In this document: piece by piece, positions 1 through 26,316 of the stretch
Position numbering within the stretch: the stretch's first letter is position 1
Layout: each line of letters starts with the position of its first letter
DNA from: Yuukianura sp. NJ FZ-2021
Taxonomy: Eukaryota
Direction: 5' to 3'
NCBI GenBank assembly: GCA_046563655.1
Contig: CM102289.1
Coordinates: 8,122,001-8,186,000 of the forward strand
DNA: 64,000 nucleotides
Translations under genes and position numbers: made by a program
Notes under the pieces: generated by a model
Seen by the model: only the letters and a program-made list of their open reading frames with translations
Told to the model about the DNA's origin: nothing
Database searches by the model: none

Positions 1-2975
1 TGGATGATTTCCATAAGGAAATCTAGCATCGTTTTTGTCGTATTGTGGCGTATGGCCTTAGCGTAGACGTATCGTGAGAGGAACTCGACTAGGACGACAA
101 TGTACTTATTTCTCGACTTTGTAGAGGGCAGGGGCCCGATGACATCTACACTGACTCGGTCGAAGAGGTCACCGACTGGGATGGGTGACAATAGTCCAGC
201 GGGATGTGTGTTCCGGACCCGGCGCTTCTGACAGATGGCACAGTTCCGTACGTAGTCGGTTATAAGCGCGTCGAGCTTGAACGCGAAAATGCTGTTCCGA
301 GCCCTGGCAAGGGTTCGGGCGACGCCTAAGTGACCCATGAGTACGTCGTCGTGGAAACGAGGTAGAACGGAGTGCATCATGTGCTTCGGGATGACTGGAA
401 GGTTGGTCTTCGTTAGTTTGCATTTGTATTGTAGGAGGCCGTCATCTACAGTGAAGCGTTTGTGGAGCTTGCTCCTAGCGTTTGTAGTGAGAGTAGCTAA
501 GATTTTCTGGAGCTTCTCGTCGTTTTGTTGTTGTTGTATGAGCTCGGTACGCGAATCTATCGGGGTAACAAATTGCATTGCGTACCAGTGTACTGGGAAC
601 TCATCAGTAAATGTCGCAGCGTGATCCTCCACAGGGAAACGTGAGAGGCAGTCTGCTTGAACGTGGCTTTTCCCATTGACGTGCTTTATTATGTAGTCCA
701 CGTCCTGGAGTCGTAATGCCCAACGTGCCAGGCGCGAGTTGCGCAAATTCCTGCACGTTTTGAGGTAGCAGAGGGCGTGATGATCGACCACAATCGTAAA
801 GGCTTTGAAGCCAATATACTCTCGAAATTTTTCAATTCCCCACAGAACTGCTAAGCATTCCTGTTCACTGGTGTTGTAGCGTTCCTCAGCGCCACGGTAG
901 GTGCGGCTGGCGTAAGCCACCACGCGTAAGGTGTCCTCCTCTCGCTGTTGGAGAATGGCGGCAATGCCCTTGTTCGATGCGTCTGTGTGTAACTCGAGTT
1001 CTGCATTCTCATTAAAGAATGCGAGGATGGGTGCGGAAACCAAACATTGGCGAAGGGAATCGAAGGCTCCCTGTTCCTGGTCGCCCCACTGAAAAGCTAC
1101 GGTACTTTTGGTGAGCTCAGTCAGTGGTTTTGCAATTTGGCTGTAGTTCTTGATGAAACGACGGTAGTATCCAGTACAGCCAAGGAACGTCCGAACTTCG
1201 TGAACGTTGGTGGGAGGTCGCATCTCAGTGATGGCCTTAACTTTGTCAGGGTTGACGGCAACTCCATCCCCCGTAATTATGTGACCAAGGAGTGCTAGTT
1301 TCGTCTGCCCGAAATAGCATTTCGGGGGTTGAAGAGTAAGGTTGTAAGCACGAAACTGTCGGAAGACATTTTCCAAGTTGGCCAAATGTGACTGAAAATC
1401 TTTGGCGAAGACGCATACATCGTCCAGGTATGCAGTACAAATGGAGTGGATTCGCGTTCCAAGAACTGTCTTCATAAATGCGCTAAAGGCAGCTGGAGCG
1501 CAAGTTAAGCCGAATCCCATGTAGAGGTGTTCGTAAGCGCCAGCATGAGTCACAAAGCTCGTCTTTTCTACGTCGTCCGGATGAATCGGGATTTGGAAGT
1601 AGCCGGACATCAGATCCAGGCAAGAGAAGTACTTGGCGCCATTCAGAGAAGCCAATAGTTCAGAAATTACTGGCATAGGCCAGTTGATGGTTTTGGTCAC
1701 GAAGTTGAGTTTCCTCCAGTCGATGACCATCCGGTATTTGTCGCTGTTCGGTTTCTTAACTAGAGAAACTCCAGCGGCCCAAGGGGAGCGGCTTTCTCGA
1801 ATAATTCCTGCTTGTAGAAGTTTGTCGACTTCTTCTTCAATTATTTTCTTCTCTGCTGGACTCTTCTTGTAAGGTGGGCAGCTTACTGGTAGTGCGTCGC
1901 CAGTGTCTATACGGAAAGTGACATCTTTGGCTTTACCAAGTTGGTCCAAATTCCAAGCGAAGATGTCGCCATATTCTAAAATGAGAGCACGGAGTTGCGC
2001 TTGTTCGCCGGTGCTTAAGTCTGGATTTATTTGAAGTTGGTCAATATTTTCTCGGGTTGATTCCTGTCGTTGCCGGCGGATTTCCTCTTCTGGTTCCGTT
2101 TCTCGAACCAAAACACGGTAGATATTCCCGACGTTGACTCCGCGGTACAACTTGACAGCGACTGGACGCGGATTGTCAATGGGGATCTCGAAGTCTCCTT
2201 CTGCGACATGAGCGAGTCCTGGGGCACAAAGGCCTAACTTGTCGAGAGCTTGGCTGTTTGGTTCGAAAGCGAGTATTCCTCGGAGCTGGTCAACTGGAAA
2301 GACCTTGATGAGCGTAGTCGAGAATGGTGGCAGCATCGTTTCCTCAGCTGTAAGAACTTTTGGCATCGAGGGACCATGAACCTGGGTAGCGTGAACTTGT
2401 TCGCGTTGCATTGTGTTTAGACTCAGTCCAAGGGCTGCTGGGGTACGTAGGTTGAATCCTCGCGGTACCTTCATACCTAGGAACTGGAAAGTTCCATGTT
2501 CCAGCGACTTCGAATACTTCAATTGCAGTTCATGTTCCAGTGTGAAGTCATTCCCGAGGATTACATCGTAGGATATGTCCGCCAGGACATAAAACTTATG
2601 CGTTAGCAGAGTGGTTGACTTGCGGGAAAATGTGACTTGCCGATAGACGTAACCGAGTACCGTGACCTTCGACCCGTTTGGAAGGTCGAGAGCTGATGAA
2701 GAGTCTATGGGCCTGATTTCGTCCAGAGTGACATTGTTGAGCCGAATTATGCTGACTGGGCATCCCGTGTCAAGGAGACACGAGCATCGCTTGAGTTTTG
2801 AGTTTTGTGACAGAAATATGCTAATTATGAGATTGCCGACTGGATCCATACTGCTAGGGTCTCCTGGAAAAGCTGTGTTGCGGGTCATCATAGCTAGAAT
2901 TGGTCGTGTTGGATTAGAGGGTTTAGCGTTTGAGTGGGCTTCAGACCTCTCTACTGTCGCCGCGCTGCGTTTCCC
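1..2975 (-). CDS. pol: Pol polyprotein (aspartic protease, RT, RNase H, integrase N-terminus), -1 frame relative to gag, open to the window edge
   Basis: Manual translation gives LLDTG (2763-2777) and DVILGNDF (protease); SPWAAG, DWRKLN, LDLMSGYFQI and YLDD (1419-1430) (RT); HTDAS, AYASR, ECLAVLW, VDHHAL, ADCLSR (RNase H); H-x5-H...C-x2-C and VDVIGPLP (integrase). All motifs are in one frame with no stop found. It is missing from the ORF track because it has no stop inside the window. Confidence 0.96.
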
Positions 2976-4456
2976 TGAGCCGTTACGGTTCGTCCTGCAG
3001 TCGGTGCTGATACGACAGCACGAGTTGAGTTGTCCTTGTCACAGGGTGAGGCGGGTCTCATGGCGTGATAATCGTCGCCTACCACAGGACATTGATATCC
3101 AAGGTGTGTCCCGTCACAATGTTCACAGTGGACACGTTTTCGGTTCCAGTTTGTGTCCCGTTGTTTCGACCGCTTGGGGCAGTTGGCTATGCGGTGGTCG
3201 TCCCAACCGCACTCATAGCATCCTGGGTACAGCTTTTGGCCTTGCCATGGTGGGAATTGGTGAGCCGGTTTTCGTTGTCCAAAGCCATACCGGTTTGGCT
3301 TGTGGTATAGGGGTGGCTGCTCGCGGTTGTAGCCGTGGCCTGCTTTCCCCCATGTTGGGCGTCGTCCACTCGGGCGTCGATCCGCCGGTGGCGGTCGCGC
3401 TGGTGCCTCCAGATTCATGTTGTTGAGACGTGCGGTTAGCCTGGGTAGGTCAGTGCCAGCCCGTTTCCGCTTCATCATGAAGTCATAGTTCTCCTTTTCG
3501 ATGAGGTACTGCATTACGTCCTGCGGCGTCTTCGGTTGGCGCAGAAATACCTCGTGACTGACATCAGCAGGCAACCCCTTGAGCAGGAAGTTGACTCGCT
3601 TCTCGTCCTTCATGGTGGTTCCTTGGCTTTTGTCCAGCTGGTCACATAGTCGCAGCACCTTGCCGCAGTAGTCTTCCACGCTCTCTTTTGGATTTCTCTT
3701 CCGCTGGGCCAAGCGGTGTTCCAATTCTTCCTCAGTGAGCCGTGACTTGAAGCTAGTGTGGAATCCCTCCTTCAGGGTCTTCCATGGAAGAGCGGCAACG
3801 TCGCCGTTGGCATCTCGATTGGCTGGGTCACGCTCCCAGTCAGTGCGAAAGTTCAAGAACCAAGTCTTCGCATAGCCCTTGAGGTAAAGCGGCAGATGGC
3901 GCACTTTCGCAGCCTCGTCCCATCGTTGATTAACAGCTATTGCCTTGAATGTCTCCCAGAAATTCCTGGCTGGGTAACCTCGCTTCCCCTCGAATGTTGA
4001 ATCGCCCGGTGGTGTCCAAACGGATACCACAACACTCGGTGCGGGAGTCGTCAGCACAACAGGCTGCTGAGGTCCCGGAGTAGGTGGCGTGCCTACGCCT
4101 CCTGGCGTTCCAGATGCTGGTGGCTGTCCGCCACCGGTTAGGTTCACAACTGGGACTGTTGAGCTTGGCCCACCAGCTCCTGCTGGCGGCGTCGGTGGGG
4201 TAGTCGTTGCGGGCACCGGAAGAGTGAACGCGCTCCCGGCCCCTCCGGCGGGTCCTGTTGTCCCGCCCGTTTGGCCCGTTGTGGGGCTAACGACAGGGTC
4301 GCTAGGGCTTGTCGTCGCACCGGCTCCTGCCGTGGGCGTCTTCGGCCGTTGCCGATCTCGTTCCTTTGCCTCCTTCAGTACTGCGGAGAGGTCCGCAAGT
4401 CCGTACGTTGGTGGAGTCCCGTCCTGTCGGGTGTGTCGATGAGCTGGATCCGACAT
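2951..4456 (-). CDS. gag: Gag (capsid + nucleocapsid), 501 aa
   Basis: WDEAAKVRHLPLYLKGYAKTWF and QRKRNPKESVEDY capsid-like motifs; zinc knuckles CYECGWDDHRIANC (CX2CX4HX4C) and CEHCDGTHLGYQC (CX2CX3HX4C); P/T/G/A-rich N-terminus. Confidence 0.92.
   Translation of the reverse strand: MSDPAHRHTRQDGTPPTYGLADLSAVLKEAKERDRQRPKTPTAGAGATTSPSDPVVSPTTGQTGGTTGPAGGAGSAFTLPVPATTTPPTPPAGAGGPSSTVPVVNLTGGGQPPASGTPGGVGTPPTPGPQQPVVLTTPAPSVVVSVWTPPGDSTFEGKRGYPARNFWETFKAIAVNQRWDEAAKVRHLPLYLKGYAKTWFLNFRTDWERDPANRDANGDVAALPWKTLKEGFHTSFKSRLTEEELEHRLAQRKRNPKESVEDYCGKVLRLCDQLDKSQGTTMKDEKRVNFLLKGLPADVSHEVFLRQPKTPQDVMQYLIEKENYDFMMKRKRAGTDLPRLTARLNNMNLEAPARPPPADRRPSGRRPTWGKAGHGYNREQPPLYHKPNRYGFGQRKPAHQFPPWQGQKLYPGCYECGWDDHRIANCPKRSKQRDTNWNRKRVHCEHCDGTHLGYQCPVVGDDYHAMRPASPCDKDNSTRAVVSAPTAGRTVTAQGNAARRQ
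2969..2975 (-). other. -1 programmed ribosomal frameshift slippery heptamer G GGA AAC
   Basis: X XXY YYZ heptamer phased with gag, 5 codons before the gag TAG. The -1 frame reads straight into the protease. Confidence 0.85.
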
Positions 4457-5930
4457 GGCTTACTTCGTCTTCTTCTTCTGAAAGGATCAGATGATTAGTT
4501 GTATTTGGTCCCCTAGGTCTTGGGATGATGCGGGGTCGAGGGTTGGACAACTTCCTCCCTCGGCATTTGCAGAAAAATGAAATAGCTATTGCCCCCATGC
4601 CGGCTAGTAACCCTACTATGAAACCGCGCATGAAGGTGTCGGGGTTGAATATGTCGGACATAAGGTGGGCAGTTTGACAGTCTACCCCCAGTTGAAGATA
4701 TGCGTATAGGGACTTGTCCATGAGTAGCTTGTTTTCCCGGGTTATCAGCTGGACCCGGCCTTTCTCGTAAGTGTAAACGCCTCGTTCTGTGTCCCGAATA
4801 CCGACAAGGCGTAGATCTCGTAGGTGAGGGTATGGCATGTAGATGTCGGGCTCGTCCCATAAAGTTTTGATCATGCCCTTCTCCAGGTATAGCGGCCTCC
4901 ATCCAGTGGTCAGCTTAATCCAGAGGGTGTGTTCTGACGGGAAGTATCCCAAAACTGGGTATGTAATGCCAAAGATACTTCGGTGCTTGAGTCCTGGTGT
5001 AATTAGGTGGCCATCTGATGAATATACTCCGATTTGGTCGTCAACCATAACATAGAGGTAACTCGCGACGCCGACTGTAAAGTTGATTCGGCCGTCTGGC
5101 GGGAAGTCCTCGAAGAAATCGGAATTCTGCACTGGAGTAGGAAGTAGTGTCCCAGCTCCTGTAACTCTAACGTGACCTTTCCCGTGGAACAAGAGATGTT
5201 CCCCATTGAGGTAACCAACATGATCGTACCATAGGGTACTCAGGCCTCGGATGTTTTCTCCATCCGGCCCTTCGTCGAAGAATCCTGGTGGGTACAGGAC
5301 TTTCAGTGCTTCTTCGTCGGGAACTCCTATTTCCGTAACGTGCGGCCAGAACTGGTACCATGCTGTCATCACAGATCCTATGGCACGAGTGTGTGGCAAG
5401 GCCAAGGCGTGGCCTATTTCGTGTAGGAGTACCGAAAATAGATTGACGTGTTCGTCGTCTTCTCCGAGAGACCAAGTCTCGTTTGCGTCTAGGTGGATTT
5501 GTCCGCCCATAACTGATCCTGGATAGTGGGCGTGGGCTAGTGTGCCTCCACGTCCGTCACTGGCGTCATCATGAATTTCGTGTTCGAAAGTGATGGAGAT
5601 GTCCGCACTCCCTTCTACGTAAGTAAAGGTGAAGTTGGAATAGCGTTGCCACTTCACAAACGCCAGACTGGCGTCAGCCAGTGCTTCTTCTCGGTCCATA
5701 TCATATGGAGTAGGTCCAAGGGTCCAGGTAAGGTCCTTCTTGGTCCACCGGTGAGGGTTCACCGGACTTCGTCGAGTTCGTGTCGCCAGTGCCCACGGGC
5801 ACATCATCGTTCCGGCGACCTCTGCAACAAGCGTCGTCCCGACGCAAAATACAAGGAGCATCCGTGGAGTCATACCGTCCAGGTATCCTGTAACAGGGTT
5901 GAACCGCCAAGGTTCGGTAATTTGTTTCAT
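4302..5930 (-). CDS. Membrane-type matrix metalloproteinase (M10A-like) carried by the retrotransposon. First in-frame ATG is 5930; alternatives are 5873 and 5861
   Basis: Hydrophobic leader MLLVFCVGTTLVAEVAG; RTRR (5769-5780); W-x-K-x-x-LTW; ADISITF; DGRGGTLAHAHYPG; GQIHLDANETWS; HEIGHALALPH (5391-5423); SVM Met-turn (5367-5375); degenerate hemopexin-like region; TM GFIVGLLAGMGAIAISFFC (~4569-4626); basic tail. Confidence 0.92.
   Translation of the reverse strand: MKQITEPWRFNPVTGYLDGMTPRMLLVFCVGTTLVAEVAGTMMCPWALATRTRRSPVNPHRWTKKDLTWTLGPTPYDMDREEALADASLAFVKWQRYSNFTFTYVEGSADISITFEHEIHDDASDGRGGTLAHAHYPGSVMGGQIHLDANETWSLGEDDEHVNLFSVLLHEIGHALALPHTRAIGSVMTAWYQFWPHVTEIGVPDEEALKVLYPPGFFDEGPDGENIRGLSTLWYDHVGYLNGEHLLFHGKGHVRVTGAGTLLPTPVQNSDFFEDFPPDGRINFTVGVASYLYVMVDDQIGVYSSDGHLITPGLKHRSIFGITYPVLGYFPSEHTLWIKLTTGWRPLYLEKGMIKTLWDEPDIYMPYPHLRDLRLVGIRDTERGVYTYEKGRVQLITRENKLLMDKSLYAYLQLGVDCQTAHLMSDIFNPDTFMRGFIVGLLAGMGAIAISFFCKCRGRKLSNPRPRIIPRPRGPNTTNHLILSEEEDEVSHVGSSSSTHPTGRDSTNVRTCGPLRSTEGGKGTRSATAEDAHGRSRCDDKP
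4478..4498 (-). promoter_or_regulatory. Putative splice acceptor (branch point CTAAT + TCCTTTCAG), 21 nt upstream of the gag ATG
   Basis: Minus strand reads ACTAATCATCTGATCCTTTCAG|AAGAAGAAGACGAAGTAAGCCATG. Confidence 0.55.
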
Positions 5931-6640
5931 TGCTTCGTTTGTAGCCTCGTTGTGTTTCGCTCCTCGGGGTATGCGACAGGTGTCGAAGAAAAACCTCTGT
6001 CCTACGTCATCGCCTCTCTCGAGTGGTCGCGACTCCACCCTCAAAGCGACTCCGATTGCTTGCTGAATGGGCAGCTGCAGGGTCTGGGACCTTCTGTGTC
6101 TGCAGCCCGGTCAAGTATTACACCGTTGCCAAGGGAACGCGCACCGTCCCTTAACCCGTTCCTTCACGGAAAATTTACCTATCGGTCTTCGGTTTCATCC
6201 ACGACAAAGCGCGGATAGCAAGTGAATCTTCTAATCGAGCCGTAATACCTCAGCCAGCTACCCAACTGGTGAGGGAGGAAATTAGCAGAAGAGAGAGACG
6301 TTGGAAGCTGTAGCTGCTCTACTTTAATTTCTGGTTGACTGAATTAATTACCACTACTGTAACTGTGAACCTTTGACTAGAGCCACTGCCCTATGAGGTG
6401 AGCTTTGGCCTTGGACAGAGCGTATGTGATGTCAGTAAAGGACTTTCACCTCTACGAGGGTCACCTTCTTTACTGCACCTGTTCGATGCCCTTGGCCACT
6501 CGCTCGCCAGAGGGGGGGATAGTACTAGGTCGTAGTCACTTCCGTAGAAAGTGGTTTCGTAGAAAGTAATTCAGTTTTCTCAAATGGTCCAGGTCACCCC
6601 TCATAGTACCACATTATCTCCTAACTCATTATATTATTTT

Positions 6641-6800
6641 ATTACGTTATTACGTTATTGTAATATTTACTTGGTTACGTTATTGTCCTTAAATAAATGT
6701 TCTACGTTATTGATTCGCACTCGCATTCATCCATTACGTTAATTACGTTACGTTAATAGCTGCGTTAGGTTACGTTAATTACGTTAATAATTACGTTAGG
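6641..6800. repeat. Array of ~10 TACGTTA motifs in the retroelement leader/LTR region
   Basis: Counted directly: 10 TACGTTA copies plus one TGCGTTA, in AT-rich spacers. Confidence 0.85.
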
Positions 6801-7533
6801 TTGTGGTACTGAATCAGCAATAGTCTCGCTTGAACAAAAAGCGCAAGAAAGAAAAGCAAACAGCGGCAGAGGCGGGAACCTCTTATTCTTTTAAAAGAAA
6901 TTGCCATCCCGGCAAATGCACCAAATGTTACGTTGGAAAAACGCAATGCCGTCCAGAAGGGCCCTTGGGGTTCAACCGCTGTCTAGTCCAAGGGGTCAAG
7001 GGCCTTAGAGACCCCTTCCCGGCGATGAGTCCCGTCAATAGTAAGTGTAAGGGTTGATGTTAAAATAATAAATAAATAAGTGTCTCCCATACCTTCTGCT
7101 ACTGGTGATAGTTGGGTGATTTTATTTTACAGTGAATAGGTTAAGTGCTAGTCTTCCTTCCTTCGTGCTTCTCTTAGTGCCCTTTCTTACTTCCAAACTA
7201 TGAGTGCGGGGTATTTAACATAAGTGCCTAATTGGGGCTATTGATAGTGTGGTTTCCGGGTAAGTTTTAGTACTAAACCGCATTAGCGGCGCTGGCTGTG
7301 GTTGTGTTAATTGTGCTGAATAAATTCGGCCTTGCGGTTTCTATCTTAATTTCCTTAGCCTTGCTATTTCTTCCTCTTAGTAACTAAAGTGACTTAGTAA
7401 CTAAGTGCAGTTGTTAGCCCTAACCTTGACATTGAAGTGAAAGTCTAGTGCAACAATTTACGGGTGCAACAATTGCCGCACCGGAAGCAAGATAATTTCG
7501 GGTTATGAAAGTGGGGCAATAATTTCAGCAAGA

Positions 7534-8556
7534 TTACTTATTTACATTGATGGATTCAAAGTCGATTGTAATTGTTGTCTTTACTGGAACATATTTTCTG
7601 CAAAGAAAAGAAAATCCAAAAATTAATGTATCACGGTAATTCATTAATAATTAATAAAGTTTGATTACGTGAATCGAACCCCAGCAGACTCAAACAAACG
7701 CTTCGCCGCTTTGACGCTGGGTCTGGCCTCGTATTTGTCAGAATAATAGATCACCTAAACATAACAAAAATTAACAACGTACTAAATTAAAAAATTTAGT
7801 AAGTAAAGTTAACCTGCTTAATCCCAGACTGAATTATTAGCTTAGCACATTCATTGCAAGGAAACAGAGCAACGTAGATTCGGCAATTCTTCAATTCCCC
7901 TACAATTTTATTGAGTATAGCATTCATCTCCGCATGACAAACTGAAAATTCAATAAACAAGTCGTTACGCAAAATAAGACTTAGAATTTATAAAAGTCTA
8001 CAAAACTCTCTAAGTAGCAGGACTTACCGTACATATGCTTTTGCTCCAGTACATCCGATGAAGCCTTACCCCAAGGGAAAGAGTCATCGCTACATCCAAT
8101 TGGGAATCCATTGTAGCCGATTCCAACAATTTTATTCTCGGAGTTGACTATACATGCGCCAACCTACAATCCCAGACAAAAAAAAAATAAGCGATTCTTT
8201 GTGGGTTATGAACCAAAAGACTTCGTTGACCTGAGAACACGGATCCTTTGACCTCATAGCCGATAGAAATGCCACCGACATAAAATACTCTTCCCAGGAA
8301 ATGTAATCTTCTCTTTTCTCACTTGACTTGTTTTGCGGTATCGGTTCCGTTGTCAGCGAAGATTCTGTAATACTAAAATACATGACAACGTTAGCTTTAG
8401 GCTAAAGTCAAAATTTAGCAAAATTTATTCAAAATTTAGCACATCAAGATCAAGCTAAAGGCTTTAGCTTGATCTTGAATGATGTGCTAAATTTTGACAG
8501 CAAGTCAATTAGTATTTAACTCAGCCTGATATAACAACTTACCCATTCGGGTCCAT
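7534..8556 (-). CDS. DCTD: dCMP deaminase (6 exons)
   Basis: Spliced translation: MDPNG|ITE...[36 protein letters not shown]...GIGYNGFP...|[10 protein letters not shown]...[16 protein letters not shown]...|...[14 protein letters not shown] and PCxxC zinc motifs present. Confidence 0.95.
8431..8495. repeat. Near-perfect palindrome (30-bp arms, one 4-nt bulge) in DCTD intron 1
   Basis: aaaatttagcacatcaagatcaagctaaag-g-ctttagcttgatctt(gaat)gatgtgctaaatttt. Confidence 0.8.
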
Positions 8557-9095
8557 GATTTAATTGAACTCCAAAGAAACGATTTAATTAACACTTATTA
8601 ATTAATACTTAATTACAACAAATGTGAGTAGTGGTAATTGAACCTTATTATTTTTCAAAGAGAAAATCCATGAAACAGCTGTGAATATCATCAGAATTTT
8701 TTGAACAAACGATTTCCCGCGTTTCCGTTGTTTGAATTTGGCATTTACGCATTCCATACAAGATTTATGAGACAAAGAGCAATTATAAAGAGTGGGAACT
8801 TTAAAAATAGCGTCCATCTCCTTATCCCCTCCGCTAAAAATTAAAATTTGCGGTTAATAAGCGTAGTATCAAAAATGAGCTTAATTAAGCACGCGTAAAA
8901 ATAAAATAAAAAACTGAAAATATAATTTGCAATTAGAAAGTTAACTGTGGCATTTAAAATTTCCCTCCTTGTGGTTTTATGTTTGTAATAATAATTTGGC
9001 GGCGAACTTTAAATAAATTGTGTTTTTACATCTTTACACATTAGAAGTAAAGTGTAACATAGAGTGACAAACGTAACGTTAAAATTTCGTTCATA

Positions 9096-18960: not shown

Positions 18961-20121
18961 TTAATCATTGTACCAATCCAAAAACAGAAGTGACAGTGAC
19001 ATTACAATTATGAAAAATAGAACCCATGCCCTGAAATCAGCGCTATTTTGTATAGCTTGTCGTAACTGTTCGTTTCCACCTTTGATGTTCTCCGTAGTTC
19101 CAACCACAACGTTAGCAATTTGACTAATTTCCTTATCCTGTAACAGAACTTTTTCTGTAAAGATTTCTTGCAGTTGAGCAATTTGTACTACGCTGGATTC
19201 AATTTGCTCTACTTCATCTGATGTCGTGCGTAACGATTGGAGTAGAAGTGAATTCTCTTCTTCGAAGATTTGGAGTTCTTCGGCAGTATATTCGTATTCG
19301 CCGTACATTGACCCCAGATGATCAGCGTCTTCTGGAAACAACGGGCTGGGTGTTGGGGTTACAGCTTGATCGACTTGGTCCGCACTGTTATTGGGATCAG
19401 CATCGCCGTACAGCTTCTTCGGTTTCGGCATTGGTTTTGCTTTCGACTCGGGTGTAGTATTGGAATGGTGTGGAGTGAGATTGAGCTTTGCAATTTTTTG
19501 AAGATCCACAGATCGCTTGACTCGGATTGCCTTCATCTCAGTATAGACACCGCACACTTCCTTCAAGTATTCCGATATGGAGTTTATCACATTTCCCAAA
19601 TGAATGTATAGTTGCGGATGGTCGTCTTCAAGTCCCTTTGAATCAATTAGTTTCTGGAATTCAAATATTCGCTTCTGACTGTTCTGAATAATTTTTTGAA
19701 CGCTCATGTCAATTTGGTCTTTTTCTGATTCTGTCATCATGTCCGGTGGTGTTAGAGTACGACGTAACCGGGACCAAGAGCTTGACCTTGACAATGGATT
19801 CGGATGACCTTCGGCAGAGGGACTCAGGACTTCAGACTTCAAATTCATGCTTCCTTGGTCAACGTTCAGATAAGCCGCTCTCGTTTCGACGAGAAATTCA
19901 CGAAGGCTGCTGATGTTGCCAATCAACTCTCGGGCTTTTCCGTAGTACTCTGTCTTCTTCCCAGGAAAAAGCTTCGATTTGGCTTTGACGACTCCATTAC
20001 TACTGTGCTGAGCTGCAGAAGGATTTGATTCCGGTCCTGGACTAGTGACGACAGTTCCAAGCGCTTTGCTTCTGTTCTTTACCACGTCCAGCTTTGCCTT
20101 AAAAATCATTGTGATATCCAT
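18961..20121 (-). CDS. STX18: Syntaxin-18 (single coding exon, 386 aa)
   Basis: MDITMIFK start; LREFLVETRAAYL; SNARE helix EVEQIESSVVQIAQLQEIF; C-terminal TM ending FLDWYND. Confidence 0.93.
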   Translation of the reverse strand: MDITMIFKAKLDVVKNRSKALGTVVTSPGPESNPSAAQHSSNGVVKAKSKLFPGKKTEYYGKARELIGNISSLREFLVETRAAYLNVDQGSMNLKSEVLSPSAEGHPNPLSRSSSWSRLRRTLTPPDMMTESEKDQIDMSVQKIIQNSQKRIFEFQKLIDSKGLEDDHPQLYIHLGNVINSISEYLKEVCGVYTEMKAIRVKRSVDLQKIAKLNLTPHHSNTTPESKAKPMPKPKKLYGDADPNNSADQVDQAVTPTPSPLFPEDADHLGSMYGEYEYTAEELQIFEEENSLLLQSLRTTSDEVEQIESSVVQIAQLQEIFTEKVLLQDKEISQIANVVVGTTENIKGGNEQLRQAIQNSADFRAWVLFFIIVMSLSLLFLDWYND

Positions 20122-25011: not shown

Positions 25012-25047
25012 TATTATAATAGCGAAGCTATTATGATAAAAGTGGTT

Positions 25048-25078
<31 letters not shown>

Positions 25079-26168
25079 CTGTCTGTCTGTCCAGATTAAT
25101 TATCTCAGAAACTACTGTCCCGATTTGATTCCGGTTTTCACCTATCAACACCCCATGACCCGGACTAGGTCGCTATTGAATATGACCCCAGGCTGTCAAC
25201 TCCTTCCGGGTCAAAGGTCAAGGTCAACCGGTTTCATCCCCGGTAACATGGAAAATGACCTCTACAAAAGTTGTTCATCTCATCGAGGGGAACAACTTTT
25301 GTGTGTAATGTGTGACCCTAGGTCACCTGCTTCCGGGTCAAAATCGCTTTTAAAGGTCATTTGTAATGCAAGTGTGGATAAAAAAACTCTGCTTGTGAGA
25401 CTGGAAAGGCAATTGGCATGGGCCTTGGTTCTCTGCTTAGCAAAAAATCCATTACGCAGTTGACTAACACACTCAACTGTCACCTGTCACACTTCATCTG
25501 TCACTTCACCTGTCACGCGCCGGGTGTCACCTGTCATGGCTGTCACGGCTGTCACTTGCCGGGTGTCAGCTGTCACCTGTCACTTTCCGGGTGTCACCTC
25601 TCACCTGTGACTTTCCGGGTGTCACCTGTCACTTGCCGGGTGTCAGCTGTCACCTGTCACTTGCCGGGTGTCACCTCTCACCTGTCACTTTCCGGGTGTC
25701 ACTTGTCACTTGCCGGGTGTCAGCTGTCACCTGTCACTTTCCGGGTGTCACCTCTCACCTGTCACGTGCCGGGTGTCACCTGTCACTTGTCACTTGCCGG
25801 GTGTCACCTGCCACGTGCCGCGTGTCACCTGTCACCCTCAAGTGTCACTTGCCGGGTGTCACCTGTCACGCCTCAGCTGTCACGTCTCACCTGTCAAAAC
25901 CCCCTGGGGGGGCGGGAAAGTGGGGGAACACACCCCCACTACCCCGGGGGGGCTGGAAAGTGGGGGAACACACCCCTACGCTTCCTGGGGTGCGGAGCAA
26001 AAAGCGGGAAAACACACCCCTACTCCCCGGGGGGGGGGGGCGGTAAAGTGAGGAAAACACACCCCCCACTTCCCCCGGGGGGGAGGCAGGAAAGTGGGGG
26101 GAACAAACCCCCTTCGGGGGGCCTATTGCTTCGCTATTATCAGTATGGGCGGTTTACAACCGGTTTAT
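25012..26168 (+). mobile_element. Non-autonomous Helentron-type element (HINE/DINE-1-like)
   Basis: 13-bp subterminal IR ataatagcgaagc (25016-25028) / gcttcgctattat (26128-26140); (GTCT/GTCC)n microsatellite near the 5' end; central tandem repeats; 3' hairpin cggtt-tac-aaccg (26150-26162); T-rich ends. Confidence 0.8.
25477..25896. repeat. Complex minisatellite of TGTCAC(C/T) and GCCGGGTGTCA units
   Basis: Directly visible; it produces spurious C/H/V/T-rich ORFs in all three plus frames. Confidence 0.9.
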
Positions 26169-26316
26169 TCTGATTCCATTTATTTCGGTTATCTCGGTGC
26201 GCAGTAAGGCTTTTCGGTTCTCGGAGTTTGTTTTAACTATACTGACGTAAAGATAGGCTGGTTGTTGTATTGGCAGCACCTGATTAGCCAATCGTAAATT
26301 GCTCAATGCTCACTTC

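Follow-up and report, generated by a model that had tools for sequence, protein, structure and literature searches.

The window, a 64,000-nucleotide stretch of DNA from a springtail (Collembola), carries on the minus strand of positions 1-7313 what appears to be a Ty3/gypsy LTR retrotransposon, cut off by the window edge after its first (5') three-quarters. Between its primer-binding site (PBS) and gag it would harbour an accessory gene that descends from a cellular, membrane-anchored matrix metalloproteinase (MMP), a reading to which a probability of about 0.6 can be given. The elements follow one another on that strand in the order LTR-like repeat, PBS-like site, leader of about 1 kb, MMP ORF, gag (overlapping the MMP ORF) and pol:

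6926..7313, minus strand: candidate 5' LTR, about 388 bp, with terminus ...AACGTAACA and a non-canonical upstream end lacking TG
6904..6923, minus strand: PBS-like site TGGTGCATTTGCCGGGATGG, 2 nt past the LTR-like ...ACA
5931..6903, minus strand: 5' leader, about 970 nt, with nine TTACGTTA motifs clustered at 6642-6798
4302..5930, minus strand: accessory ORF, 542 aa, membrane-anchored and matrixin-like, uninterrupted from ATG to stop
5766..5930, minus strand: its residues 1-55, a compressed MMP propeptide remnant (profile and relatives alignment)
5286..5765, minus strand: its residues 56-215, the catalytic domain (Pfam, PDB sequence search, model)
4686..5234, minus strand: its residues 233-415, a divergent hemopexin-like (beta-propeller-like) region (profile comparison and models)
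4569..4625, minus strand: its residues 436-454, a putative hydrophobic membrane anchor (Kyte-Doolittle 19-residue mean up to 2.16)
4305..4568, minus strand: its residues 455-542, a basic-then-acidic tail of 88 residues whose final 51 codons are shared with gag in a different frame
2951..4456, minus strand: gag, 501 aa, with two zinc-knuckle-like motifs (Pfam Retrotrans_gag and Ty3_capsid)
3..3038, minus strand: pol, with protease DTG, RT, RNase H and integrase zinc finger (Pfam RVT_1, RT_RNaseH, Integrase_H2C2)

An earlier sequence-only reading had described an uninterrupted ORF of about 540 aa starting at ATG 5930, on the same strand as gag-pol and overlapping gag by 155 nt, and the ORF coordinates confirm this description (542 aa, 5930..4302; overlap 4456..4302, with the MMP stop 155 nt within gag). 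Because the two ORFs overlap, an LTR between them, which that reading had considered, is impossible; the LTR-like repeat and the PBS-like site lie upstream of the MMP ORF, and its position internal to the element is thus supported. The element-like base composition noted earlier was also found, with a GC content of 0.47-0.63 across 1-6500 against 0.30-0.45 in the flank (window composition scan). The codon composition of the MMP ORF is that of the element and not that of host exons, GC3 being 0.54 in the MMP ORF, 0.54 in pol and 0.58 in gag versus 0.41-0.43 in four host ORFs or exons. That this ORF belongs to the element as an accessory gene is very likely. The host neighbours had been portrayed as almost all intron-rich, which does not apply to the syntaxin-18 neighbour (18964-20121), a single uninterrupted ORF, so that the intronless state is not unique to the element. 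The similarity of that syntaxin-18 is also what identifies the host as a springtail.

Other copies were followed through contig tables from four public runs of two organisms; the runs X1-X3 represent one sample, perhaps the source of the assembly, and only X5 is independent. The element end was placed at 7313, where four X1 and three X2 contigs depart from the window into sequences that also differ from one another (agreement 0.67-0.69), and contig joints (7024->7209, 7032->7275 and 6935->7274) link 7209-7313 with the LTR body in other copies. An LTR start at 7220, with TGTTA there and its inverse TAACA at 6930-6926, is a possible alternative but agrees less well with the joints. The window holds no second LTR copy, the LTR being read from one end only; the 3' part of the element, with the 3' LTR, the target-site duplication and any env, lies beyond the window edge. 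In the second organism, organism B, depth reached 117 in the 6901-7200 bin versus 2-3 in host bins. The 26 nt at 6935..6910, comprising the LTR end and the start of the PBS-like site, are the sole island retained in a divergent subfamily contig (joints 6517->6910 and 6935->7274), which occurs in every one of the four runs, among them that of organism B. The PBS-like site may resemble the 3' end of tRNA-Gly; no tRNA genes were found in the window. As for the leader, variants of which occur in both organisms, nine of the ten window matches to the TTACGTTA motif fall inside 6642-6798 (about 2 expected window-wide; none of 100 shuffles reached 10), and short tandem arrays were also seen at this cluster.

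The gag frame opens just one codon ahead of the gag ATG. The pol frame begins at 3038, -1 relative to gag, with an ATG at 2891 and 963 aa still open at the window edge; its closest database relative shares 35% identity. Since 27 ATG triplets lie in between, gag-pol is unreachable by scanning, and it would probably be made from a message that is spliced or initiated internally. A site resembling a splice acceptor is found 22 nt upstream of the gag ATG, such splice-site-like matches being pattern matches only.

The best-defined part of the MMP ORF product is the catalytic domain, which Pfam assigned to Peptidase_M10/matrixin, as expected from the earlier reading (PF00413, 127 bits, E 6.4e-37, residues 61-213), and for which the PDB sequence search gave a match to MMP-1 (1fbl; E 2.3e-25). 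The catalytic model, with pLDDT of 89-98 outside residues 121-130, a block at 60, matches MMP-8/12 (Z 22.6), the comparison with MMP-8 (VIA) yielding an rmsd of 2.0 A over 155 residues. The zinc motif HEIGHALALPH (residues 170-180; 5391-5423) has the arrangement H170-E171-xx-H174-xxxxx-H180 and M188 corresponds to the Met-turn. The catalytic motifs, previously called complete, are so with regard to the zinc ligands and the Met-turn, but the Gly of HExxHxxGxxH, which all 51 aligned MMPs have, is replaced by Ala177. Among the columns conserved in at least 85% of those 51 MMPs, 32 of 39 are kept, the changes being the Cys-switch, L100F, F124S, G177A, P190A, L201I and G214P. The chances that the protein is catalytically active seem evenly balanced.

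Upstream of this domain, residues 1-55 were modelled with pLDDT below 50. The profile alignment begins at residue 12, with PVTGYLDGMTPRM matched to the propeptide consensus, and the propeptide remnant is also seen in the alignment with the three nearest relatives. No PRCGxPD cysteine switch is present in the MMP ORF when it is aligned with MMPs. The predicted furin site was recovered as RTRR at residues 51-54 (5769-5780). Kyte-Doolittle analysis revealed two hydrophobic segments, residues 24-42 and 436-454; the signal peptide claimed earlier corresponds to the first, a possible signal sequence by hydrophobicity alone.

The hemopexin-like region had likewise been proposed from sequence. Pfam returned no hemopexin match in the MMP ORF, and profile comparison and models are what point to a divergent domain of this type at residues 233-415. 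The single sequence compared with an MMP profile gave for this region a probability of 2.6 (E 0.017), while a four-sequence profile of the ORF and its nearest relatives, compared with the hemopexin part of 25 MMPs, gave 97.9 (E 4e-13, 121 columns). The full model has pLDDT of 61-87 at residues 233-360 and aligns with full-length MMP-1, -13 and -12 across 377-435 columns (E about 1e-19). A model built without canonical MMPs was weak (pLDDT 51.7), its best Foldseek match being the MMP-2 hemopexin domain (E 3e-4), tied with WD40/DDB1 propellers. The transmembrane helix and tail of the sequence-only reading find their counterparts in the likely anchor at 436-454, where a helix was predicted at residues 438-456 with low pLDDT, and in the 88-residue tail. 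In the three nearest relatives a hydrophobic tail likewise closes the protein at the anchor position, but they stop 1-12 residues from the anchor, so the long tail is peculiar to the element. A language-model search pointed to an MMP-16 cluster (Hemopexin plus DUF3377; score 0.77), a lead only.

A HMMER search against 1.84 billion representatives produced 4319 matches, all via the catalytic domain. The nearest catalytic domains belong to three unnamed proteins that each have a complete propeptide and a hydrophobic C-terminus (SH-aLRT 87), and springtail MMPs share 41-44% identity with the MMP ORF. As stated earlier, MMPs occur in large insect DNA viruses (granulo-, asco-, nudi-, entomopox- and iridovirus entries), but identity to viral MMPs was 15-18% over whole models and at most 32% for one catalytic domain, and the protein is no closer to them than to cellular MMPs (42% at best). 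The protein libraries, metagenome scans and literature searched yielded neither a protein nor an arrangement closely related to the one described here; a matrixin was combined with gag/RT in none of 35 Pfam-scanned MMP matches and none of 82 pol matches, and the two metagenome loci scanned among the four returned were ordinary cellular genes.

The ORF could have been a simple passenger, that is, a host MMP cDNA that one gypsy lineage acquired in its leader by transduction, of no service to the element and still open due to a young capture or young copies. The loss of the signal peptide, the cysteine switch and most of the propeptide would agree with this view, as would Gly177Ala together with the 7 of 39 altered conserved columns, a long tail arising by read-through into gag, subfamily contigs with the first 41 codons swapped out (joint 5808->6387) and, as far as the accessible part of the source goes, the few copies in which plant transduced ORFs occur (PMC7264820). 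However, identity does not exceed 45% to any representative searched, so capture was not recent, and the GC3 of the ORF, 0.12 above host exons, sits at the element value, a shift needing long residence. Moreover, the leader-MMP-gag order recurs in diverged copies from two related organisms and in subfamilies at least 5% apart, which the sequence-only reading had proposed to check for the MMP-gag junction. For example, a 1941-nt X3 contig spans 3792-5742 (MMP and gag start) with 99 differences and 12 gap letters, and organism B, from a separate study, carries 4968-5629 (662 nt, 6% divergence) with 42 differences and no gaps, as well as 5605-6490, leader included; the divergence of its host-flank contigs is about 5-9%.

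Selection can be read from the differences listed as best supported (40 of 830 differences, 12 of 81 indels). In the MMP ORF, 8 of 11 listed differences are synonymous and 3 non-synonymous, a small, possibly unrepresentative sample from codons 216-306 only, the excess over an expected synonymous share of 0.24-0.30 having P = 0.0009-0.004. Listed indels are in-frame or upstream: two X1 contigs share an in-frame 6-nt insertion behind 4467 (tail), those of an X1 contig covering the MMP start and leader (5867-6286, depth 525) all lie upstream of the ATG, and the only frameshifting ones listed fall before the ATG (6061-6242). The MMP ORF has probably been kept by selection, and the passenger explanation is improbable. 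In pol, 23 of 24 listed between-copy differences are synonymous and some contigs are only 1-2.4% from the window, which fits the recent activity proposed earlier.

No more probable is that the ectodomain persists as a membrane-anchored binding or scaffolding module, catalysis being lost or irrelevant; the tail might dock capsids at the plasma membrane, or the ectodomain might bind a surface or matrix ligand like the receptor-binding part of Env. This would suit the replacement of an invariant motif Gly, the element-specific tail with its basic juxtamembrane stretch and acidic cluster overlapping gag, and the hemopexin-like region, a binding module in MMPs; in the accessible part of a preprint, the MDG1-element protein sORF2 works with no enzymatic activity (bioRxiv 10.1101/2025.03.14.642691). 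Conservation of the catalytic site would nevertheless be unexpected if catalysis were dispensable, and the protein retains Glu171 and the three catalytic His residues, the Met-turn, and the ligands of the structural zinc and of calcium, within a confidently modelled, MMP-8-like fold. A host MMP gene or retrogene beside a 5'-truncated gypsy copy, or a misjoined assembly, is close to refuted in spite of the single element end and non-canonical LTR start, since independent, diverged contigs of four runs cross both the leader-MMP and MMP-gag junctions, the ORFs overlap, MMP, gag and pol share a composition unlike that of the host, and the MMP ORF is preceded by the PBS-like site and the repeated LTR-like block.

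Under the preferred reading of an MMP serving the element, a host-type, membrane-anchored MMP would have been captured as an intronless copy and would then have shed the signal peptide along with most of the propeptide, the hydrophobic N-terminal stretch now serving as export signal. The LTR-driven transcript would yield a type I membrane protein whose protease part faces outward and, lacking the cysteine switch, would be active after RTRR cleavage or even without it. Most speculatively, this surface protease might cut basal lamina or surface proteins around element-expressing cells, and so open a way for capsids into other cells, chiefly those of the germline; such a role in cell-to-cell or tissue spread is tentative and rather doubtful. 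An MMP as cargo, unreported for Ty3/gypsy elements in the literature searched, would offer a possible tool for moving between cells or tissues. Extra ORFs had been described earlier as usually lying 3' of pol, but there is an upstream precedent: the accessible part of the same preprint describes accessory ORFs upstream of gag in the MDG1 group (sORF1 and sORF2), functional, translated from the unspliced transcript and acting at invasive protrusions (bioRxiv 10.1101/2025.03.14.642691), and the surface role proposed here would parallel that of the membrane protein sORF2.

A Ty3/gypsy LTR retrotransposon lies on the minus strand over positions 1-7313 of the window, where three consecutive long ORFs correspond to a matrix metalloproteinase (the MMP ORF), gag and pol. 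An element with a surface MMP as cargo is real and unusual, and the structural claim, namely that the element carries the MMP ORF, is well supported within one window and the contig tables described below.

Features of the element (window coordinates, strand, nature and basis)
7313..6926, minus strand: repeated LTR-like block; contig ends and joints
6923..6904, minus strand: PBS-like site; sequence reading
5930 (ATG)..4302 (stop), minus strand: MMP ORF, 542 codons, Peptidase_M10 (Pfam)
4456 (ATG)..2951, minus strand: gag, 501 aa, Retrotrans_gag and Ty3_capsid (Pfam)
3038 (frame opens; first ATG 2891) to the window's left edge, exited after 963 codons, minus strand: pol

The MMP ORF stops 155 nt within gag, and the pol frame, which is -1 relative to gag, overlaps the latter by 87 nt, no ORF being found between the two in the ORF scan of the window. 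The pol domains recognized by Pfam (RVT_1, RT_RNaseH and Integrase_H2C2) follow the Ty3/gypsy order, with the integrase core falling beyond the window, and a DTG motif is present at the pol N-terminus. GC content is 0.47-0.63 over 1-6500 against 0.30-0.45 beyond, and GC3 amounts to 0.54 in the MMP ORF, 0.54 in pol and 0.58 in gag, compared to 0.41-0.43 in four host ORFs or exons. ORF calls, Pfam and the GC profile thus confirm the three-ORF layout described in an earlier, sequence-only reading of this DNA, and the element-like rather than host-like base composition that it attributed to the MMP ORF agrees with the GC and GC3 values of gag and pol. Synthesis of an MMP-gag fusion by frameshifting was considered and rejected: the gag frame is closed up to one codon before its own ATG, and a shift within the 155-nt overlap, although possible, found no support.

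The limits of the element were approached with Logan contigs of four public sequencing runs placed on window 1-9000. Three runs (X1-X3) derive from one sample, possibly the source of the assembly, and the fourth (X5) comes from another organism (organism B) and another study. At 7313, four X1 and three X2 contigs diverge from the window and from each other, and this position is therefore taken as the end of a repeat. Joints, that is, contigs skipping from one window position to another (7024->7209, 7032->7275 and 6935->7274), show 7209-7313 connected with the LTR body of other copies; an LTR start at TGTTA 7220 fitted the joints more poorly than 7313. On the element strand, 6936..6904 reads ...CCAACGTAACA tt TGGTGCATTTGCCGGGATGG, corresponding to an LTR-like ...ACA end, 2 nt and a TGG-initiated PBS-like site, located about 970 nt upstream of the MMP ORF start codon. 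The window contains only the 5' side of the element, the 3' LTR lying beyond its edge; self-comparison of 1-8000 with the window revealed no second LTR or copy within it, and the tRNA and Rfam scans gave no match. The sequence-only reading had regarded a 5' LTR between the MMP ORF and gag as the main observation that would speak against an MMP ORF internal to the element; no LTR occurs there, because the two ORFs overlap.

One contig of a divergent subfamily, recovered from each of the four runs, has 6935..6910 as the sole piece of this region, continues with 6517..6387 and then enters the MMP ORF from 5808, meaning that the LTR-PBS-leader-MMP order holds in a second subfamily. In this leader variant, 5809-6386, which includes the MMP start codon and the first 41 codons, is swapped for 5 letters. 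Another variant, observed in X3 and organism B, has 38 and 108 other letters in place of 6049-6141 and 6287-6368, respectively, and retains the MMP start. The leader therefore exists in two or more variants.

Some further features of the leader (6903..5931) can be mentioned. Nine copies of an 8-mer (TTACGTTA on the plus strand, TAACGTAA on the element strand) occur in 157 nt, at 6642-6798, where about 2 would be expected in the whole 64-kb window; the array looks like a set of candidate transcription-factor binding sites, and joints 6517->6910 and 6490->6798 indicate that some copies are without this stretch. A 38-codon ORF (6907..6791, minus strand), with its ATG inside the PBS-like site, encodes KRIRGSR followed by a 20-residue hydrophobic run, and it could be due to chance or, by analogy, specify a small membrane peptide like those of the MDG1 short ORFs upstream of gag. 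A 35-nt piece, 6437-6471, far exceeds the remainder of the element in abundance in each of the four runs (depth of about 1100-1800 in X1 and 390-510 in organism B), and since contigs diverge from the window on both of its sides, it seems to be a short module common to another, more numerous repeat.

The protein encoded by the MMP ORF is a clear matrixin in its catalytic portion. Residues 61-213 match Peptidase_M10 (PF00413, MEROPS M10A) along positions 1-158 of the 159 in the profile, scoring 127.3 bits where 24 is the cut-off (E 6.4e-37), and phmmer aligns the protein with MMP-1 (E 2.3e-25). The AlphaFold model of the catalytic domain, with pLDDT of 89-98 save for one block at 60, superposes on MMP-8/12 (Z 22.6, rmsd 2.0 A, 155 residues). 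Of 39 columns with a conservation of 85% or more among 51 other MMPs, the domain retains 32, including the positions H120, D122, H133, H146, D125, G126, G128 and E151 of the conserved structural-zinc and calcium columns, which we take to be metal-site ligands as in MMP structures. The complete M10A motifs claimed from sequence alone proved correct as regards the zinc histidines H170, H174 and H180, the catalytic-motif E171 and the Met-turn M188, but not the glycine of HExxHxxGxxH, which is present in 51/51 aligned MMPs and is replaced here by Ala177. That such a product would serve as a non-catalytic membrane scaffold, a role for which this substitution might be invoked, seems unlikely in view of the retained zinc ligands and glutamate, and a putatively active protease is the reading followed below.

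The region preceding the catalytic domain departs from that of typical matrixins, in which a propeptide with a cysteine switch is the rule, though not a universal one. Profile comparison aligned residues 12-326 with 25 full-length MMPs at probability 100, with the alignment starting in the propeptide, and PVTGYLDGMTPRM of the MMP ORF falls on the conserved propeptide stretch xTGxLDxxTxxxMxxPRCG. Pfam found no PG_binding_1 in the MMP ORF, the PRCGxPD cysteine switch is absent and the Cys column is lost in the 52-sequence alignment, the corresponding area reading PVTGYLD...PR-MLLVF-C-V-G or MMCPW depending on the alignment. Residues 1-55 are, as judged from these alignments, a compressed remnant of an MMP propeptide, within which the hydrophobic run 24-42 could be a candidate export signal. 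Directly before the catalytic domain, R51-T-R-R54 has the RX[K/R]R form of membrane-type MMPs (MT-MMPs), aligns with RHKR of a springtail MMP and is a predicted processing site. As the cysteine switch is missing, the product would presumably not be held latent.

The C-terminal half is more divergent. Neither Pfam Hemopexin nor DUF3377 matches the MMP ORF, and region 233-415 as a single sequence gave only a weak match to the MMP profile (probability 2.6), whereas a four-sequence profile built from the MMP ORF and its three nearest relatives matched the hemopexin part of canonical MMPs with probability 97.9 (E 4e-13). For the full model, 377-435 columns could be aligned to MMP-1, -13 and -12 at full length. 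An Atlas lead (score 0.77) points to an MMP-16 cluster. A model built without canonical MMPs in the alignment is propeller-like but of low confidence (pLDDT 51.7), and Foldseek placed the MMP-2 hemopexin domain first among its matches, tied with other propellers. Region 233-415 is thus considered hemopexin-like with moderate confidence, so that the hemopexin-like region noticed earlier is recovered through the profile with relatives and not through Pfam. A hydrophobic segment (436-454) follows, and then an 88-residue tail, basic at first, with the stretch KCRGRK just after the segment, and acidic thereafter. This tail is an extension peculiar to the element, since the three nearest relatives stop 1-12 residues past their hydrophobic C-terminus.

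With respect to the host, the window contains a syntaxin-18 gene as one uninterrupted 386-codon ORF (18964-20121, minus strand). Its nearest matches are unnamed proteins (67% and 63%) and the nearest named ones are those of the springtails Allacma fusca (49%), Orchesella (41-42%) and Folsomia (41%), which indicates that the host belongs to Collembola. A HMMER search of 1.84 billion representatives with the MMP ORF retrieved 4319 matrixins, none above 45% identity and none having the C-terminal half of the MMP ORF in common with it; a word-based protein search gave three matches with 31-36% identity, the best named being MMP-24 and MMP-14-like. A phylogeny was built from 152 catalytic domains, after exclusion of two of the 153 retrieved proteins because their alignment was short. 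In it, the MMP ORF clusters with three unnamed short-contig proteins (SH-aLRT 87), which combine a signal peptide with a complete PRCG propeptide, and in which the C-terminal region is similarly degenerate and the end hydrophobic. Identity to the MMP ORF amounts to 41-44% for named springtail MMPs, and the MMPs of granulo-, asco-, nudi-, entomopox- and iridoviruses are no closer to it than cellular ones; comparison with these insect-virus proteins indicated no viral donor. The simplest reading of these sequence relationships would be that a cellular membrane-bound MMP was captured by the element.

The contig tables also informed on other copies and on selection, considering the best-supported 40 of 830 differences and 12 of 81 indels. 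An X3 contig of 1941 nt covers 3792-5742, that is, the start of gag and most of the MMP ORF, and shows 99 differences (5%) from the window as well as 12 gap letters, and two X1 contigs carry an in-frame 6-nt insertion behind 4467. The X1 contig at 5867-6286 has a depth of 525 against 35-38 for window-identical contigs, and its indels, among those listed, all lie upstream of the MMP ATG. In X5, 4968-5629 is found with 42 differences and no gaps, and 5605-6490 is also present; as the host-flank contigs of X5 (7871-8362) differ by about 5-9% from the window, this organism is a related species. Diverged copies sharing the MMP-gag layout, which the sequence-only reading had proposed to look for, are therefore found both in the X1-X3 sample and in X5. 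In addition, one X1 contig joins pol 637 to MMP 4606 via 12 other letters, and is an internally deleted copy in which the 5' part of the MMP ORF and the 3' part of pol stand in line.

Among the differences listed, 11 fall in the MMP ORF (codons 216-306), 8 being synonymous and 3 non-synonymous, and 23/24 of those in pol are synonymous. With 0.24-0.30 of changes expected to be synonymous, the 8:3 ratio has P = 0.0009-0.004, contrary to the neutral decay of the ORF that had been named as an observation against a retained function. The MMP ORF could in principle be a neutral passenger of the element, but this is improbable: the synonymous excess and the element-like GC3 speak against a fresh capture and indicate a long residence in the element under constraint. 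A pairing of MMP and gag by chance juxtaposition or artefact is very hard to reconcile with the diverged copies in two organisms and can practically be set aside. The MMP ORF is intact and constrained and comes first on the element's sense strand, and its matrixin-like product has two hydrophobic segments, one towards each terminus.

Searches for the same arrangement elsewhere returned no counterpart. The combination of a matrixin with gag or RT was seen in 0/35 Pfam-scanned proteins drawn from the best 150 of the 4319 HMMER matches, in which the multi-stretch top matches were tandem-MMP gene models and many matches to the N-terminal domain were bacterial (TSP3_bac). The pol search gave 82 matches, none with PF00413, and as the best identity was 35% the element is left without clade assignment. 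A viral-contig scan yielded no locus, and a first metagenome scan yielded 43 pattern matches with no relative among them. A second one yielded four loci; the two whose ORFs were scanned are ordinary MMP genes (PG_binding_1, Hemopexin) without gag or RT, adjoining a transporter and a kinase. A retrotransposon with an MMP was not found in the literature covered (open-access papers and bioRxiv), in agreement with the earlier statement that no such LTR retrotransposon was known. What is already known is that LTR retrotransposons may carry accessory ORFs; surface matrix metalloproteinase cargo is absent from the libraries and papers searched.

The nearest working analogy is provided by Drosophila Ty3/gypsy elements of the MDG1 group (412, mdg1, Stalker, blood), which have sORF1 and sORF2 upstream of gag, and specifically by sORF2 (bioRxiv 10.1101/2025.03.14.642691). 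In that study, sORF2 is described as having low dN/dS, being translated from unspliced full-length RNA and marking invasive somatic protrusions, with a proposed function in capsid delivery from soma to oocyte (bioRxiv 10.1101/2025.03.14.642691). As in the element, the accessory ORFs of MDG1 read in the sense direction and are located after the 5' LTR and ahead of gag, and elements of both kinds are env-less in appearance, the region 3' of pol lying beyond the window; sORF2 is also a single-pass N-out/C-in membrane protein with a basic juxtamembrane stretch, a topology that is predicted for the MMP ORF. However, sORF2 has 63-107 aa and is N-myristoylated, FAST-like and non-enzymatic, and the screen of the same study sought ORFs of 60-210 aa with a single TM, a polybasic stretch after it, an N-terminal ectodomain of 10-50 aa and the myristoylation motif MGxxxS/T (bioRxiv 10.1101/2025.03.14.642691). 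The MMP ORF falls outside these limits, with 542 aa, a matrixin ectodomain of about 400 aa, clear cellular ancestry, an MKQI instead of an MG start and an overlap with gag. What it has in common with sORF2 is limited to its location upstream of gag, a single C-terminal TM and a basic stretch. It may work similarly to sORF2, yet it is not a family member, and with a pol at most 35% identical to anything found, the likeness of the element to the MDG1 clade is one of layout and not of demonstrated kinship.

Other systems resemble the element in part. Errantiviruses, the env-carrying Ty3/gypsy elements found across Metazoa, also gained a membrane glycoprotein gene and retained it over many copies, but the genes in question encode fusogens of class I (F-type) or class III (gB-type) and are located either downstream of pol or between gag and pol, and the word "metalloproteinase" is absent from the paper describing them (eLife 2026, PMC13524379); the element has a protease placed before gag, and its region 3' of pol lies beyond the window. 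Cellular MT-MMPs (MMP-14/16/24 and arthropod membrane-bound MMPs) have in common with the MMP ORF the RX[K/R]R site, catalytic domain, hemopexin-like region and C-terminal hydrophobic anchor. The MMP ORF differs from them in its lack of a usual signal peptide, PG_binding_1 propeptide, cysteine switch and Pfam Hemopexin or DUF3377 match, and in its Ala177, 88-residue tail, intronless structure and location within a transposon. Granuloviruses, ascoviruses, a nudivirus, entomopoxviruses and iridoviruses are, like the element, arthropod mobile or viral genomes with a matrixin, although they are large DNA viruses and not retroelements. Several of their MMPs also lack the cysteine switch and are tied to basal-lamina and tissue breakdown. 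Structural matches to granulovirus, nudivirus and ascovirus MMPs had E values of 2e-18 to 1e-15. Identity to the viral proteins amounted to 15-18% across the models as aligned, and one iridovirus catalytic domain reached 32%. Finally, cellular-origin enzymatic genes have been fixed and kept across copies in LTR elements of bdelloid rotifers, where ORF3 is a GDSL esterase or a DEDDy exonuclease (PMC5408684), and in an orchid Ty3/gypsy carrying an m6A demethylase domain (PMC9289625); these enzymes are mostly encoded 3' of pol and none is a secreted or surface protease.

In the proposed mechanism, the MMP ORF would be translated from the LTR transcript and its product exported and anchored, acting as a protease outside the cell, where it might loosen the basal lamina or shed surface proteins. 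As 27 ATG triplets intervene between the MMP and gag start codons, gag-pol would need another translation route. Pattern matching revealed an acceptor-like site, cctttcag, that stops at 4478, 22 nt short of the gag ATG, and a second one at 6075, as well as donor-like GTAAGC at 4464-4459 and GTAAGA at 7190 in the LTR candidate. That the MMP activity assists capsid passage between cells, by analogy with sORF2, is given a probability of roughly 0.3. A more specific version, rather doubtful at present, is that a constitutively active membrane-anchored MMP is a spreading factor replacing or supplementing a viral fusogen. Somatic cells would produce the protease from full-length RNA, and capsids would be tethered beneath the same membrane patch. 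The basal lamina would then be opened, or barriers shed, as done by MT-MMPs, which work at invasive protrusions in animal cells, and the tethered capsids would reach the germline. On released particles, the protease might breach gut or cuticular matrices, leading to transfer between animals. If true, retroelements would have, in addition to Env fusogens and FAST-like sORF2, a third way of being infectious, which depends on a protease.

For LTR retrotransposons, gag and pol are thought to be sufficient, and the few known accessory genes (env fusogens, FAST-like sORF2 and nucleic-acid enzymes) have each revealed something about cell exit or life-cycle control. A conserved surface matrix protease would be a new class of cargo for these elements, suggesting the testable idea of an element that crosses the extracellular matrix between soma and germline. 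It would also clearly exemplify how a transposon can capture a cellular gene, remove the regulatory propeptide and remodel the rest, in parallel with the independent MMP uptake by large insect DNA viruses. To our knowledge, springtail transposons have hardly been studied, and related elements may emerge as more assemblies get searched.

As to the surroundings, host-gene exons at 7545-8383 (minus strand), which by eye from the translation look dCMP deaminase-like, end about 230 nt upstream of 7313; the gene has the same orientation as the element, which lies just beyond its 3' end. Further along, at 25023-26173 (plus strand), three overlapping long frames with a Cys/His/Pro/Val-rich repeat (CHLSPVTCRVSPVT...) form a tandem-repeat block.
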